Source: an uncultured Clostridia bacterium (lineage in GTDB: Bacteria > Bacillota > Clostridia > Oscillospirales > Oscillospiraceae). Taken from it: DNA of 27,843 nt. The stretch lies in contig CALZAG010000001.1 of assembly GCA_945613045.1 (NCBI GenBank), positions 1-27,843 of the forward strand. The letters run 5' to 3'. A program made the translations under genes and the position numbers. Under the pieces are notes generated by a model. That model did no database searches and was not told where the DNA came from. It saw only the letters and a program-made list of their open reading frames with translations. Shown piece after piece: positions 1 to 27,843 of this stretch (position 1 is its first letter; each line of letters begins with the position of its first letter).

Positions 1-122
1 CAAAATTGTGCCGGACAAGGCGGCGGCTGCAGCACATAATGGAGATATATGCGCAAAGCCGCCAACGCAGGATGGCGTAATTTTGGCCGAAAAGATCGTC
101 TGATTTCTATTGCATATCAGTA

Positions 123-23102: not shown

Positions 23103-24575
23103 ATGGAGGATCTTAAACTCAGAAAGAAAAACCTGATAATGTTCCCGCTCGGCACGGTCGGCCGCGACATGGTGTATTATCTCTTTACGAGCTGCATAAT
23201 GACCTTCGTTCTGTTCACCCGCAGCCTCACAAACTCCCAGTTTGCCGCGATCACCGCCATCGTCGTCGCCGCGCGAATTTTCGATGCGCTCAACGATCCG
23301 ATCATGGGCAACATCATCGAGCGCACCCGCACCCGCTGGGGCAAGTTCAAGCCCTGGCTCGTGATCGGCATACTCTCGACAAGCGTTGTTGTATATCTCG
23401 CCTTCAACACCGATCTTCAGGGCTGGAGCTTCGTGTGGTTCTTCGGGATAATATACTTCATGTATTCGATAACCTACACGATGCATGACATCTCCTACTG
23501 GGGCATGGTGCCCGCCCTGTCCTCGGACGCCAACGCCCGAAACCAGTTTACCGCCCGCGCGACGCTCTTCGCCGGCATAGGCGGCACCGTCGCCAGCGTG
23601 CTCATCCCCATGTTCACCGTCGGCGACATGGCCATCGGAGGCAGTACGACCACCGCCTACGGCATCATTGCGCTGATCGTCTGCATCTTAGCTCCCCTGT
23701 TTCTGTGCTTTACCATATTCGGCGTTCGCGAAAAGCGTGAGTACACCGACGCGCCTCCGGTAAGCTTCAAAAAGATCTGGAAGACCATTACGGGCAACGA
23801 CCAGCTCCTTTGGATAAGCCTCATTTTCCTGCTCCAGCAGATAGGCAACGGCTTTATCGTCAGCGGCATCGGCTCGACATACATATATTTTGACTTCGGC
23901 TACGAAGGCGGACTGTTCTCTCTGTTTTCCATCGTAGGTATGTCCGTCACCGCCTTTCTCATGATCTTCTACCCCGCAATCTCGCGAAAGATCAAGCGAA
24001 AAAAGCTCATGGGCATCCTCGCGGCGATCTCCCTCGTCGGCTACGCCGTCATGCTTGCCGCCGGTCTGTTCCTGCCCTCCGACATGACGAAATTCTGGAT
24101 GGTTGTCGTGGGCTATATGCTCTCGAACTTCGGCCAGTACGGCTACTATCTGATCATGATGATCTCCATCATAAACACCGTCGAATACAACGAATACCGC
24201 ACCGGCGAGCGCGACGAGGCCATCATCGCCTCCCTGCGCCCCTTCCTCACTAAGCTCGCCTCCGCCCTCATCGTCCTTATCACCAACGCAAGCTATATCA
24301 TCTTCGGCGTCACCGGCTACACCAACCGGATCTCCGACTTCGAAAACCAGTGCGCAAGAAAGCTCATAACCGAGTCCGAAAAAATAAGCTCGATAAGCGG
24401 CGTTATAAGCGGCATCGAACCGGGAAAGACGCTTGCGCTGCTGCTCTGCATGGTCATCATACCCTGCGCGCTCATGCTCGTTTCCTATGTTCTCTACAAA
24501 AAGCACTATAAGCTCGACGAGGACGAGTACGCCCGCATATGCTCCGAGCTCGAGGCTCGAAAGGCAAAGGCATGA
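23103..24575 (+). CDS. Glycoside-pentoside-hexuronide (MelB-like, MFS_2) cation symporter, 490 aa
   Basis: ARIFDALNDPIMG...RTRTRWGKFKPW, YTMHDISYWGMVPALS, NTVEYNEYRTGERDEA, KLASAL. Confidence 0.93.
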   Translation: MEDLKLRKKNLIMFPLGTVGRDMVYYLFTSCIMTFVLFTRSLTNSQFAAITAIVVAARIFDALNDPIMGNIIERTRTRWGKFKPWLVIGILSTSVVVYLAFNTDLQGWSFVWFFGIIYFMYSITYTMHDISYWGMVPALSSDANARNQFTARATLFAGIGGTVASVLIPMFTVGDMAIGGSTTTAYGIIALIVCILAPLFLCFTIFGVREKREYTDAPPVSFKKIWKTITGNDQLLWISLIFLLQQIGNGFIVSGIGSTYIYFDFGYEGGLFSLFSIVGMSVTAFLMIFYPAISRKIKRKKLMGILAAISLVGYAVMLAAGLFLPSDMTKFWMVVVGYMLSNFGQYGYYLIMMISIINTVEYNEYRTGERDEAIIASLRPFLTKLASALIVLITNASYIIFGVTGYTNRISDFENQCARKLITESEKISSISGVISGIEPGKTLALLLCMVIIPCALMLVSYVLYKKHYKLDEDEYARICSELEARKAKA

Positions 24576-25336
24576 GCATAACAAGACTTGCGCTCAAATT
24601 CGCCGCGCCGCTGCCAAAGCTTGAAAGCTTCGAGCGGTATCTGTTCATAGGCCCGCACCCGGACGATATCGAGATCGGCGCCGGAGCGACGGCGGCAAAG
24701 CTTGCCGCCATGGGCAAAAAGGTCGGATTTCTTGTATGCGTCGACGGCAGATTCGGCTCCGCAGTCATTCCCCCGGAGGAGCTTGCAGCCATCCGTCAGG
24801 GCGAGGGCCGAGCCTCGGCTAAGGCACTGGGCGTGGACTATGTCCGGTATCTTTCCTTCTGCGACGGCGGCTTTTATGACACGCGGGAGCTTACCTCCCG
24901 TATCGCCGGAGCCGTCGGAGAGTTCAAGCCCGAGGTCATCTTTGCGCCCGACTGCTTCGTTTCGAGCGAATGTCACCCCGATCACATAAACGTCGGCAGG
25001 GCCGCCTCAGAGATCGCCTACCTTGCCCCTTACGCGCAGCTCATGGCAAAGCACGGCGCGCAGGCCGCGCCCGTCAAGGCTATTGCCTATTACATGACGG
25101 CAAAGCCGAACCGCTTTGTCAAAACCTCGGCCGCACTTCTTAATAAGCAGCTCTCGGCGATATTCGACTGCCACAAAAGCCAGTTTCCCTCCGGCTGCCC
25201 CGAGGGCAGGGCGATCGCCATGTATCTGAAGCTGCGCTCATTTGATTTCGGCCTGCGCAGGCTGTGCGGCCATGCGGAGGGCTTCCGCGTCCTCGGCGTC
25301 ACGCATATGCATTGCCTGCCCGAGGCAGGAGACTGA
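24572..25336 (+). CDS. PIG-L/LmbE-family Zn-dependent de-N-acetylase, about 254 aa
   Basis: GPHPDDIEIGAG, DGRFG, IRQGEGRASAKALGV, HPDH motifs; ATG 24572 overlaps the symporter TGA (ATGA). Confidence 0.9.
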   Translation: MSITRLALKFAAPLPKLESFERYLFIGPHPDDIEIGAGATAAKLAAMGKKVGFLVCVDGRFGSAVIPPEELAAIRQGEGRASAKALGVDYVRYLSFCDGGFYDTRELTSRIAGAVGEFKPEVIFAPDCFVSSECHPDHINVGRAASEIAYLAPYAQLMAKHGAQAAPVKAIAYYMTAKPNRFVKTSAALLNKQLSAIFDCHKSQFPSGCPEGRAIAMYLKLRSFDFGLRRLCGHAEGFRVLGVTHMHCLPEAGD

Positions 25337-25436: not shown

Positions 25437-26669
25437 TCAGAGCGCCGACGGTTCTCCGAACTCGGGCAGGAAGATCTGCGCGGGCGGCTCGAGGGAGGCA
25501 AACTGCATGGGCGAGACAGACGCGGCGTAGCTCCCCGCGTTCGTTATCACGAAAACGTCGCCGCATTCGAGCCGCGGCAGAAGAATATCCTGTGCGATGA
25601 CGTCAGCCCCGGTGCAGAGGCTTCCCGTTACGGTGACGGTCTCCGTATCGCGGTCCTCCGTCAGCGGGACGAAGCCAAAGGCGTTCCGGCCGGTATACAG
25701 CGGTTCGCAGCCCGCAGGCTTTTCCTCCCGCGTATAGCTCTCAACCATCTGAGCGACCGAGGGCCTTACAAAGCCGCCCAGCGTGTTTGCAAGCAGCACG
25801 AAGGTCCTGCCGTGGCTCACCTTTTTATCCATAACGTGAGTGGCGTAAACGCCCGCCTTTCCGACTATGAATCGGCCGGATTCAACCAATATCTCCGTCC
25901 TTGGAAGCTGCGGGCGGTACTGCCGGATAAGCGCCGACATACTTGCGCCCAGCGCCTTAATATCCACCGGAGCGTCCTGCTCGGCATAGGGTATACCGAT
26001 GCCCGAGCCCATGTTTACGAACCTGAGCTCATGCCCCAGCGCGTTCTGAAACCTCACCGCGAGCTCAAACATCCTGCCGTAGTAAGCGGCGATCAGCTCG
26101 CCGCGCAGCTCCTGACTGCGGGAATGGACATGAATGCCGCGTATCCTCACGTTCTTATAGCCCTTCCACTGCGGCAGCAGCCGGAATGCCTCCTCCTCGT
26201 CTATGCCGAATTTGCTTGCCGAGCCGCCTTCACCGTCGAAGCTGAAATCGGGGTTAAGGCGTATACCGATGTCGGCGGTTATGCCGTGCCCCTCCGCGAT
26301 GGCCTGTATGCGTTCGACCTCTGCGGGACTGTCGGCAATGATCGTCGAGCAGCCGAGAGCCGCGTTGATATCCCGCGGGCTCTTACCCGGCGCGGAATAA
26401 TATATATCCCCCGCGGCAAGGCCGTTCTCCTTACCCATCGTCACCTCGCGCAGGGAGGCCGCGTCCACACCGACGCCCTCGTCGATTATGCATCTGAGCA
26501 CTGCCGGATGCGGGTTTGCCTTCACCGAATATAAAAACCGCACGCCCTCAAAGTTCCCTTGGAGAACGGCTATATTCTCCGCTATTGTCCGTCCGTCATA
26601 CAGATAAAAGCTCTCGTACTTTTCCGCAAGGAGCAGTACCGCGTCCCGGTCAAAGCTCATTTTCATCAT
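25437..26669 (-). CDS. Group IV PLP-dependent decarboxylase (diaminopimelate decarboxylase-like), about 407-410 aa
   Basis: PLP Lys in YSVKANPH, VDAAS..E, YSAPGK, IRLNP, SKFGI, NMGSGIGIPY, ESGRF, LCTGAD, AGSY. Start is uncertain (26660, 26666 or 26669). Confidence 0.85.
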   Translation of the reverse strand: MMKMSFDRDAVLLLAEKYESFYLYDGRTIAENIAVLQGNFEGVRFLYSVKANPHPAVLRCIIDEGVGVDAASLREVTMGKENGLAAGDIYYSAPGKSPRDINAALGCSTIIADSPAEVERIQAIAEGHGITADIGIRLNPDFSFDGEGGSASKFGIDEEEAFRLLPQWKGYKNVRIRGIHVHSRSQELRGELIAAYYGRMFELAVRFQNALGHELRFVNMGSGIGIPYAEQDAPVDIKALGASMSALIRQYRPQLPRTEILVESGRFIVGKAGVYATHVMDKKVSHGRTFVLLANTLGGFVRPSVAQMVESYTREEKPAGCEPLYTGRNAFGFVPLTEDRDTETVTVTGSLCTGADVIAQDILLPRLECGDVFVITNAGSYAASVSPMQFASLEPPAQIFLPEFGEPSAL

Positions 26670-26691
26670 CCTTTCGCCATGTTTACTTTAA

Positions 26692-26720
26692 ATTATATAA
26701 TATCGGACATTTTACCGCAA
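26692..26720 (-). promoter_or_regulatory. Sigma-A promoter of the decarboxylase gene
   Basis: Minus strand TTGCGG (26720-26715), 17 nt, TATAAT (26697-26692). Confidence 0.75.
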
Positions 26721-26775
26721 TACATTCGCGTTAAACTTTGTATATTTGCTGGAAAAATGTTTTTTAAAAAAACTA

Positions 26776-26804
26776 TTGACTTTTCCCGTTAAAAGCGTTA
26801 AAGT
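26776..26804 (+). promoter_or_regulatory. Sigma-A promoter of the aromatic amino acid ABC leader
   Basis: TTGACT (26776-26781), 17 nt, TAAAGT (26799-26804). Confidence 0.75.
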
Positions 26805-26833
26805 AGGCACATCTACAGAAAGGAAGCAAAAAG

Positions 26834-26914
26834 ATGTCTTTCCGATTTAAAGTCAGCAGATATTTTTACTATTACTTTTTTGCCGAGAGTAATGGTCGTT
26901 TGTGCTGCACTTGA
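26834..26914 (+). CDS. Putative Phe/Tyr attenuation leader peptide MSFRFKVSRYFYYYFFAESNGRLCCT (26 aa)
   Basis: AAGGAAG RBS (26820-26826) 7 nt before ATG 26834; codons TAT TTT TAC TAT TAC TTT TTT at 26861-26881; TGA at 26912-26914. Confidence 0.8.
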   Translation: MSFRFKVSRYFYYYFFAESNGRLCCT

Positions 26915-26947
26915 AACGGTTGTCATTTTTTGACGGATTTGTTTATT

Positions 26948-26985
26948 AACAGGCTGCACAAACAGTGCAGTCTGTTTTTAATTTT
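26948..26985 (+). terminator. Attenuator terminator in the 5' leader of the ABC binding-protein gene
   Basis: AACAGGCTGCAC-aaaca-GTGCAGTCTGTT then TTTAATTTT, located between the promoter and the RBS of the downstream gene. Confidence 0.88.
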
Positions 26986-27011
26986 AATAATCTTTTTGGA
27001 GGAGAAATACA

Positions 27012-27843
27012 ATGAAAAAAATTATTGCTCTCGCACTCGCCGCAATGATGCTGTTTTCACTGGCCGCCTGCGGCAGCGGCGACGACTCGGGCGATGCGAA
27101 GACCTACACCGTCGGCATTTGCCAGCTCGTCCAGCATCCCGCGCTTGACGCCGCCACTCAGGGCTTCAAGGATGTTCTCACCGAGGAATTCGGCGACGCC
27201 GTGACCTTCGAGGAAGGCAACGCCTCCGGCGACAGCGCCACCTGCGCCACCATCTGCAACGGCTTTGTTTCCAACAGCGTTGACCTTATCCTTGCAAACG
27301 CGACCGCGTCGCTTCAGGCGGCGGCCGCAGCCACCAACGAGATACCCGTTCTCGGCACCTCCATCACCGAATACGGCGTTGCGCTTGAGATCGAAAACTT
27401 CAACGGCACCGTCGGCGGCAACGTCTCCGGTACCTCCGACCTCGCTCCTCTGGACCAGCAGGCCGATATGATCACCGAGCTCTTCCCCGATACCAAGACC
27501 GTGGGCATCCTCTACTGCTCCGGCGAGCCCAACTCCGTGTACCAGGCAAACGTCGTCAAGGAATGCCTTGAGGCAAAGAACATCAAGGTCGATGTCTACA
27601 CCTTCGCGGACTCCAACGACGTTTCCACCGTTACCGCAAGCGCCTGCGCCGAGAGCGACGTGCTCTACATCCCCACCGATAACACCGCCGCCTCCTGCGC
27701 CGAAGCGATCAATGCCGTCGCACTTCCCGCCGGCGTTCCCATCATCGCGGGCGAAGAGGGCATCTGCTCCGGCTGCGGCGTTGCGACCCTCTCCATCGAC
27801 TACTACGAGCTCGGCCGCACCACCGGTCAGATGGCAGTCAAGA
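27012..27843 (+). CDS. ABC substrate-binding lipoprotein, ABC_sub_bind/TrpX-like (aromatic amino acid), truncated by the window end
   Basis: Absent from the ORF track because it has no stop in the window. Hand translation: MKKIIALALAAMMLFSLAAC (lipobox), VGICQLVQHPALDAATQGF, GNASGD, NATASLQ, NVSGTSD, GEPNS, YIPTDNT, IDYYELG; GGAGG RBS. Confidence 0.92.
   Translation, partial: MKKIIALALAAMMLFSLAACGSGDDSGDAKTYTVGICQLVQHPALDAATQGFKDVLTEEFGDAVTFEEGNASGDSATCATICNGFVSNSVDLILANATASLQAAAAATNEIPVLGTSITEYGVALEIENFNGTVGGNVSGTSDLAPLDQQADMITELFPDTKTVGILYCSGEPNSVYQANVVKECLEAKNIKVDVYTFADSNDVSTVTASACAESDVLYIPTDNTAASCAEAINAVALPAGVPIIAGEEGICSGCGVATLSIDYYELGRTTGQMAVK

Follow-up and report, generated by a model that had tools for sequence, protein, structure and literature searches.

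A probable tyrosine- and phenylalanine-sensing transcription attenuator upstream of a predicted tyrosine importer in gut Oscillospirales

In the present study, a short leader upstream of a transporter operon was analysed in an uncultured gut bacterium of the Oscillospiraceae. Comparison of related leaders and RNA folding suggest that this leader is very probably a Tyr/Phe-sensing, classical four-segment ribosome-mediated transcription attenuator, which would read charged tRNA-Tyr and tRNA-Phe. We infer that the leader is translated and that the ribosome stalls, as well as the sign and magnitude of the response. The operon begins with an ABC substrate-binding protein that most likely prefers tyrosine, and the same RNA core was found in front of other Tyr/Phe-related genes in the class Clostridia.

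Results

Anatomy of the leader and its predicted fold

The window, i.e. the whole stretch of DNA analysed, is an entire 27.8-kb contig of a 1.48-Mb metagenome-assembled genome (MAG) that is 95% complete, and near-identical DNA comes mostly from pig-gut and other gut or faecal metagenomes. All features described herein lie on the forward (+) strand. The original prediction had named a promoter, a Shine-Dalgarno (SD) sequence, a leader ORF with a Tyr/Phe run, complementary segments, an inner hairpin and a terminator, and each of these was recovered at the positions given below. A sigma-70-type promoter identified by consensus scan (26776-26804; -35 TTGACT at 26776-26781, a 17-nt spacer and -10 TAAAGT at 26799-26804) precedes an SD-like AAGGAAG (26820-26826), which lies 7 nt 5' of the leader ATG and is supported by the frame-wise occurrence of an SD and start codon in relatives. 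The leader ORF, MSFRFKVSRYFYYYFFAESNGRLCCT (26834-26914), comprises 26 codons and a TGA at 26912-26914, and it is conserved in frame in orthologs. Its regulatory codon run, YFYYYFF (26861-26881; 4 Tyr and 3 Phe), is the putative site of ribosome stalling, and Y/F runs occur in all members of the family described below.

Two structural features had been missed by the original prediction. The first is a 12-bp hairpin, P1 (26868-26896), whose 5' arm ACTATTACTTTT (26868-26879) is built from the Tyr/Phe codons themselves and pairs across a loop at 26880-26884 with the 3' arm GAGAGTAATGGT (26885-26896); it is supported by folds and covariation. The second, seen in the minimum-free-energy fold, is an anti-antiterminator lower stem around P1 (26842-26919; 26842-26860 paired with 26901-26919), which is predicted to sequester the antiterminator 5' strand in the absence of a ribosome. 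An equivalent lower stem is formed in relatives from other sequence, e.g. TATGA.CGGC with GCTG.TCATA in leader L005. The antiterminator 5' strand, GTTTGTGC-T-GC-A-CT (26898-26911), forms a duplex with 26951-26963, and within it GTTTGTGC (26898-26905) is complementary to GCACAAAC (26956-26963) at every position. This 3' strand is at the same time the 5' arm and loop of the intrinsic terminator AACAGGCTGCAC/AAACA/GTGCAGTCTGTT (26948-26979), in which folds show a 12-bp stem (26948-26959 with 26965-26976) followed by a T run to 26979. A small hairpin, TTGTCA (26920-26925) with TGACGG (26931-26936), lies at 26920-26936 inside the antiterminator loop. Compared with shuffled sequences, the fold of the 207-nt leader is much more stable, with a z-score of -4.7. 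The window contains the features by which leader-peptide attenuators are recognized, namely an SD and start codon of their own, tandem cognate codons, an intrinsic terminator and mutually exclusive pairings.

Database searches matched the element to no Rfam family. An Rfam cmscan of 26600-27100 at E<=10 returned only chance-level matches to unrelated families; the T-box (RF00230), which the original prediction had also considered absent, was not among them, and neither was any leader family (Phe_leader RF01859, Trp_leader, His_leader, the leu/phe leader and others). The exact leader peptide was absent from a collection of 15 billion proteins, indicating that the gene callers behind that collection never produced this sequence.

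Predicted switching between the two folds

When the whole leader was folded at equilibrium with ribosome masks, the terminator formed at every ribosome position, the antiterminator duplex having a dG of -15.9 kcal/mol and the terminator about -20.7 kcal/mol. Because the terminator wins at equilibrium wherever the ribosome stands, the switch must be kinetic. The trp attenuator is likewise kinetic, its terminator also winning at equilibrium. Refolding was therefore carried out with transcripts ending before the terminator 3' arm. With a ribosome footprint on the codon run, the antiterminator formed, and 8 of the 12 bases of the terminator 5' arm were paired in the window (9-11 in leaders L004-L009). 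With a footprint at the stop codon, which masks 26897-26926, the terminator 5' arm of the window was left unpaired. The attenuation geometry of the original prediction, with the antiterminator freed by a ribosome on the run and masked by one at the stop, was thus reproduced in these folds, and the pairing of segments 1 and 2, formed by the regulatory codons themselves, was added to it. Translational control of the binding-protein gene was considered and rejected, since its SD GGAGGAG (26998-27004) was unsequestered in every predicted fold.

An RNA family upstream of Tyr/Phe-related genes

A BLASTN search with the leader across 400 genomes of the order returned fragments only, yet these fragments led to leaders of aroF. 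The same core was found there before a different gene, a DAHP synthase scoring above the NCBIfam cut-off, and consisted of a Y/F run, AGTAATRGT, ATTTGTG.TGC and a terminator with the complementary segment. A covariance model, R1, was built from 19 aligned cores (alignment A2). In a MAFFT alignment of whole leaders (A1), the terminators were too poorly aligned for the counting of pairs, and duplex energies of individual sequences were compared with shuffles instead.

In the genome of the window, R1 gave a single match, at the window itself (67.8 bits). Matches, one per genome, were obtained in 16 of 150 other Oscillospirales genomes and in 14 of 149 other Clostridia genomes sampled, the weakest of the latter appearing false; these counts are descriptive, because related genomes are not independent and the number of separate observations is overstated. 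In a pattern scan of GTDB species genomes, the element occurred mainly in MAGs of Oscillospiraceae, Acutalibacteraceae and Ruminococcaceae, and also in [Clostridium] viride DSM 6836, a cultured organism whose copy (L099) is the aroF version. The genes downstream of R1 encode DAHP synthase in most cases, and otherwise the binding protein, prephenate dehydrogenase or chorismate mutase/prephenate dehydratase; all are related to Tyr or Phe. The strongly conserved nucleotides of the core are TTACTATTACTTTT ... AGTAATRGT.ATTTGTG.TGC.

Both pairings of the proposed switch were followed in the 19 sequences of alignment A2. First, 94% of the P1 cells were paired, compared with 34-70% in slid controls, and compensatory changes were observed at two pairs (AU to UA in 4 sequences, CG to UA in 5); the covariation score was reached by none of 500 shuffles. 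The original prediction had proposed a search for covarying stems, and P1 is such a stem. Second, an intrinsic terminator was present in all 19 members examined in detail, and in all 19 the segment just 3' of P1 was complementary to the 5' arm and loop of a terminator that was otherwise unrelated in sequence (complements such as GCACAAAC, GTGCAGACAAT, CACAGATTAC, ATCACAAAT and GCAGTAGAATTCAC). The antiterminator duplexes had energies of -11 to -22 kcal/mol. For 14 of the 19 members, the energy of the duplex was reached by no more than 9 of 500 shuffled targets; the signal was weaker in the subgroup L027-L031, with 20-55 of 500.

Leaders of the orthologous transporter genes

Of the 36 species of the genus that were sampled, 34 have a close relative of the binding protein, and such relatives also occur in several further families of the order. 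Their leaders were of several kinds. The type-1 leaders resemble that of the window, with an ORF of 25-35 codons, an in-frame Y/F run, a shared promoter, the hairpin, the switch segment and the terminator. Their runs read, for example, FYYYFYF, YYYYYF, YYYFYFYF and YFYYYFYF, and the promoter TTGACT-17-TAAAGT or -TATAGT was kept upstream of 13 of 13 of these leaders. The original prediction had staked its reading on conservation of the aromatic run in orthologous leaders, and the in-frame run was kept at binding-protein identities of 63-96%, including leaders in at least two other families. Type-2 leaders, in 17 other species of the genus, have a uORF of about 50 codons and a terminator, and their Tyr/Phe codons are scattered yet conserved (SY[YF]x[FY] ... 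C[YF]A ... R[YR]F).

Orthologs in other families have T-box leaders. Following standard T-box anatomy (GAA, codon, purine), the specifier was read as UAC (Tyr) for an ortholog of 60% identity and as UUC (Phe) for a paralog of 43% identity. Since T-boxes with Tyr or Phe specifiers control orthologs, the aromatic link of the transporter gains independent support. These sequences suggest that one transporter gene is under tRNA-Tyr/tRNA-Phe-dependent control by two different devices.

Is the leader ORF read?

The frame holding the longest Tyr/Phe codon run (frame 0) was compared with the other two frames. An SD and start codon with an ORF through the run were found in frame 0 at 30 of 31 R1 matches, the sole failure being the lowest-scoring match, and at 0 and 3 matches in the other frames. 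The Tyr share of the aromatic run differed with the downstream gene: it was 0.90 in the 8 tyrA leaders, most of which have YYYYYY, 0.66 in the 24 leaders of the binding protein, 0.51 in the 43 DAHP synthase leaders and 0.50 in the only pheA-type leader; these figures are descriptive rather than tests, the genomes being related. Some of the conservation of the Y/F codons is structural, because they also make up one arm of a hairpin. Pure-Tyr runs before an enzyme of the Tyr branch are nevertheless hard to explain through RNA structure alone.

The peptide tail behaves differently. The aroF leaders L046, L049, L058 and L062 have their stop codon within the 3' arm of P1 (AAG TAA TGG), and the same nucleotides are read as AGT AAT GGT in the window. 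Because the stop falls within this arm in the aroF leaders, the tail is unconserved and the Y/F frame alone is kept. The 'SNG.LCC' tail is thus, as judged from these alignments, a by-product of the RNA switch sequence. A RiPP or other functional small peptide was rejected as an identity of the ORF product, the tail being a by-product of the antiterminator and out of frame in several aroF leaders.

These observations bear on two other ways in which the leader could act. In the first, the switch would depend on translation without reading tRNA charging, the ribosome being stalled by an aromatic nascent peptide or by slow decoding, and the signal being free Tyr/Phe in the exit tunnel or general translation capacity. 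TnaC, which senses free Trp in the exit tunnel, is an example of such sensing. The anatomy of uORF, antiterminator and terminator would be the same as for a reading of tRNA charging, and the computed evidence is alike for tRNA-limited stalling and peptide-mediated arrest. However, arrest peptides normally require a defined sequence, and here the peptide is unconserved outside the Y/F run, several aroF leaders ending in another frame right after it. Moreover, pure-Tyr runs before tyrA and mixed runs before genes of the common pathway are what codon-by-codon sensing of charged tRNA predicts, and arrest by free amino acids would have the wrong sign, inducing import and biosynthesis at high supply. 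We therefore consider this mechanism improbable. In the second, which we regard as slightly less probable still, the short ORF would be incidental and the hairpins would serve as the binding site of a protein, of a small ligand or of uncharged tRNA. The strong conservation of the core nucleotides, the covariation of P1 and the fact that the family can be modelled as RNA alone are in its favour, but the placement of the SD and start codon in the Y/F frame, the frequent Y-to-F exchanges that keep the codons aromatic, and a Tyr share that follows the regulated gene all argue for a translated run; in addition, the structured part is small, consisting of one hairpin and the switch, and matches no Rfam family, T-box included.

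RNA contigs from metatranscriptomes

In two pig-gut metatranscriptomes containing a near-identical strain, RNA contigs covering the transporter gene start at 26943 and 26934, i.e. 5-14 nt upstream of the terminator hairpin, and other contigs, reaching to 26636 and 26671, span the divergent gene for a decarboxylase. No assembled RNA contig covered 26672-26933, which includes the leader, in these two metatranscriptomes, contigs being weak evidence. Leader RNA should, if anything, be in excess where an attenuator mostly terminates, and this gap is not support for such a device. The gap could be explained by processing upstream of the terminator hairpin, by loss of short RNA during library preparation or by a hole in the assembly. 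The leader of the Bacillus subtilis thrS T-box is processed, and its hairpin then stabilizes the mRNA; the 5' boundary observed here may recall this processing, an analogy that is only a lead. Read-through mRNA of the transporter may likewise be processed just upstream of the terminator hairpin.

An internal promoter, TTGTCA-18-TATTAA (26920-26949), was rejected as the source of these ends, since its start would fall downstream of the observed contig ends. In two other RNA runs, a relative of 95-97% identity gave a single contig across the whole region, which could be DNA.

The least probable alternative is that nothing is regulated, the region being a T-rich 5' UTR with a chance ORF and either a leaky terminator or one with another purpose, such as stabilizing a processed 5' end; the contigs beginning just before the hairpin with the leader uncovered fit such 5'-end protection, but the arrangement is kept across the class Clostridia specifically before Tyr/Phe genes, and the segment after P1 stays complementary to terminators that are otherwise unrelated.

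The downstream binding protein and its substrate

The gene behind the leader (27012-27843) encodes the first 277 codons of an ABC substrate-binding lipoprotein of PF04392 (Pfam 1.6e-50; best PDB match 6HNI), of the CD0873-like tyrosine type, and is cut by the contig end. In a full-length ortholog of 96% identity (L003), a BPD_transp_2 permease and then an ABC ATPase follow downstream. The original prediction of an aromatic amino acid importer with a 'TrpX-like' binding protein stood as regards the ABC binding-protein family; the TrpX label proved loose. TrpX equivalog identity was rejected, because the L003 ortholog, although of the same Pfam family, scored 236.9 bits against NF041285, below its cut-off of 390. 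Among solved structures, the nearest relative is CD0873 of Clostridioides difficile (6HNI), a binder of tyrosine.

CD0873 has been found to bind tyrosine by crystallography and thermal shift; its Glu-263, replaced by Ala in Phe and Trp binders, forms a hydrogen bond with the hydroxyl group of Tyr, and its Tyr-279, replaced by Gln in the Trp binder, keeps Trp out (PMC6816091). In the protein of the window, a Glu (IIAGEEG) and a Tyr (SIDYYELG) align to these two residues, and both were present in every leader-controlled ortholog examined whose sequence spans the positions. In the paralog of 43% identity behind the Phe T-box, the Glu-263 equivalent is replaced by Tyr. These alignments suggest that the importer is most likely tyrosine-preferring. 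The original prediction held that a dual Tyr+Phe leader also predicts the substrate; sensing of both amino acids is supported by the comparison of leaders, whereas the substrate is better described as Tyr than as Tyr plus Phe, because tyrosine is indicated both by the pocket residues and by the closest ortholog under T-box control. The mixed Y/F run may mean that the importer is induced by a shortage of either amino acid.

Discussion

Herein, we propose the following sequence of events for the Tyr/Phe-sensing attenuator. Transcription would start from the promoter at 26776-26804, and a ribosome loaded at the leader SD would translate the 26 codons behind the polymerase. When Tyr and Phe are plentiful, the ribosome would reach the TGA at 26912 and cover about 26897-26926, hiding GTTTGTGCTGCACT (26898-26911). 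With this strand hidden, the terminator at 26948-26976 and its T run would form, and transcription would end before the transporter genes. In an untranslated leader, the strand 26898-26911 would be tied up by the long stem 26842-26919, and here too the terminator would form. When Tyr or Phe is short, the ribosome would stall on YFYYYFF (26861-26881), covering the 5' half of P1 and that of the lower stem. This would release the strand 26898-26911, which could pair with 26951-26963 before the terminator 3' arm exists, and the antiterminated polymerase would read into the operon of binding protein, permease and ATPase.

Several consequences follow if this proposal is correct. First, an unannotated control element would explain the coupling of tyrosine uptake to tRNA charging in a pig-gut Oscillospirales bacterium, and the results support a change of annotation, from a generic 'ABC substrate-binding protein' to a tyrosine importer. 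Second, one attenuator design would serve the first common step of aromatic synthesis, the Tyr/Phe branch enzymes and uptake, with a codon content that fits the role of each gene. Third, the alternation with T-boxes at orthologous loci would be a clean natural example of sensor swapping. The value of the element lies in annotation and in a well-delimited test system, and not in a new principle.

The original prediction regarded pheL/trpL-type attenuators as typical of proteobacteria, which is outdated: F/Y-rich uORFs have been reported in Firmicutes, including Clostridia (PMC6429828). Stav et al. (2019, BMC Microbiol 19:66) described two 'aromatic amino acid attenuators', uORF-12 and uORF-13, found from C. 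novyi. The 1258 examples of uORF-12 come from Bacilli, Clostridia and Erysipelotrichia, and most of them precede amino-acid transporters; uORF-13 has 336 examples, roughly half of them in front of aroF, with tyrA, shikimate genes and amino-acid transporters next, and consists of an F-Y-F uORF before a terminator; both were proposed to act like the trp attenuator, as a prediction rather than by experiment (PMC6429828). His leader peptides are also documented in Firmicutes (PMC2965389, PMC9413887), as are Leu leader peptides (PMC5794164). Thus, this kind of attenuator was already predicted in Firmicutes and Clostridia in 2019, and its mechanism is that of the textbook. What may be new at the margin is the association with a CD0873-type importer, the gene-specific tuning of Tyr and Phe codons, and the alternation with T-boxes at orthologous loci; a literature search found no paper on these three points.

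Compared by description only, uORF-12, uORF-13 and R1 share the same gene set, an occurrence in Firmicutes including Clostridia, and an F/Y-rich uORF with a terminator. The gene set and range of R1 closely match those of uORF-13 as published. The position of the codons differs: F-Y-F lies 'within the loop of P1' in uORF-13 and 'immediately preceding stem P1' in uORF-12, whereas the Y/F codons of R1 form the 5' arm of an inner hairpin within a longer stem. The paper names 'amino acid transporters' only, and not the PF04392 tyrosine ABC importer. We put forward only tentatively, and with more doubt than belief, the idea that R1 is a distinct class-wide attenuator chassis, an RNA other than uORF-12 and uORF-13, whose codon run has been retuned for each gene (pure Tyr for tyrA, Tyr-biased for the importer and about 1:1 for aroF and pheA). 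If this were true, the codon composition of leaders could reveal the substrates of uncharacterised transporters, and within a single order R1 would have taken the place of Tyr and Phe T-boxes in front of orthologous transporter genes.

Other leaders before DAHP synthase genes also combine an aromatic-codon uORF with a terminator, namely the Acholeplasma uORFC-13-1 motif before aroF (Brewer et al. 2021, PMC8632094) and the Corynebacterium glutamicum aroR leader, which is cited in the supplement of Stav et al. (PMC6429828). They belong to other phyla or classes, are reported to be structurally distinct and carry no reported association with a transporter. The E. coli paradigms pheL-pheA, pheM-pheST (RF01859) and trpL follow the same logic as the window, with a codon run, 1:2, 2:3 and 3:4 pairings and an intrinsic terminator, and the stop codon of the window is placed as in pheL and trpL so that a terminating ribosome masks segment 2. 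The window differs from pheL and pheM in having no sequence or structure homology to them (no Rfam match at E<=10), in its mixed Tyr and Phe run and in its Clostridia lineage, and it regulates an importer, whereas pheL and pheM regulate a biosynthetic enzyme or a synthetase. The T-box leaders (RF00230) that stand in front of PF04392 transporters, e.g. Streptococcus suis trpX (PMC9382623), control the same transporter family and have the same output, namely read-through of a terminator when the cognate tRNA is uncharged. The T-box RNA, however, senses uncharged tRNA directly, whereas sensing in the window is proposed to proceed through the translating ribosome.

Leaders upstream of orthologous binding-protein genes

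The gene encoding the PF04392 binding protein has been observed behind leaders that differ from the short Tyr/Phe-run leader of the window. First, 17 further species of the genus carry a leader designated type 2 upstream of the orthologous gene (loci L010-L026 and L042), where it stands in place of the short Tyr/Phe-run leader. The type 2 uORF comprises approximately 50 codons with the pattern MSIC...NTGRR..SA.SY[YF].F[RS].VC[YF]A[DG]RYFAAL.LSDRC...VF, in which the Tyr and Phe codons are conserved but scattered, and the leader also contains paired GCAGAC/GTCTGC hairpins and a terminator. Second, uORFs with Tyr-only clusters, MSESIIKTAQPVVGSYYYYGEVRYYAGPFVHARIQ and MTYQNRYYHYYYFLPAVERPSVV, were observed before more distant orthologs at L035 and L038 (genomes G027 and G032) and at L039 (G051), each followed by a terminator. 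MSESIIKTAQPVVGSYYYYGEVRYYAGPFVHARIQ was translated from an ATG visible in the sequence, as only a shorter GTG start was given in the automated ORF listing. The core described by R1, the covariance model of the window-type leader, was absent from the Tyr-only leaders of these three loci.

Third, T-box leaders were observed in this gene family. Genome G058 harbors two PF04392 binding-protein genes, each preceded by a T-box (L034 = G058:C4; L041 = G058:C13). The specifier of the first was read as UAC (Tyr), and the pocket Glu, at the position aligned to CD0873 Glu-263, is kept in its binding protein; the specifier of the second was read as UUC (Phe), and Tyr replaces the pocket Glu. At L040 (G053:C22), the leader is T-box-like, with a score short of the gathering threshold; its specifier was read as UUC, and the pocket Glu is kept.

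RNA boundary at the window leader

In two pig-gut metatranscriptomes containing a near-identical strain, the RNA contigs of the transporter gene start at 26943 and 26934, that is, 5-14 nt 5' of the terminator hairpin, and neither the promoter nor the leader ORF, which lie within the uncovered stretch 26672-26933, is spanned by any RNA contig. This boundary could be a processing site, with the hairpin left as a protective 5' end; an assembly gap could also be its source.

Overlapping genes for an MFS_2/GPH-type symporter and a PIG-L deacetylase occupy 23103-25336 (+) of the window, and a PLP-dependent Orn/DAP/Arg decarboxylase-family gene (25437-26669, -) is divergent from the leader promoter.

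The aro operon and its leader

The window's own genome contains an aro operon (contig C22, L215:5286-13266) encoding CM/PDT, DHQ synthase, chorismate synthase, prephenate dehydrogenase and a DAHP_synth_1 protein. No R1-type leader was found upstream of this operon, which is preceded by a leader of a second kind (L215:4215-4525) with a promoter, SD, uORF, hairpin and terminator. The uORF comprises 48-55 codons with the pattern M.ICRNN...SFNAVRFY[AS]YC.FYYY(YY)G...QRT, and the hairpin GCAGTACG/CGTACTGC lies within it, directly 5' of the Tyr run, with the terminator downstream. This leader, kept in at least eight other genomes of the genus, is resembled by the type 2 leader, and may be the other published motif, uORF-12 or uORF-13 (Stav et al. 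2019, PMC6429828), among the F/Y-rich aromatic amino acid attenuators of Firmicutes.
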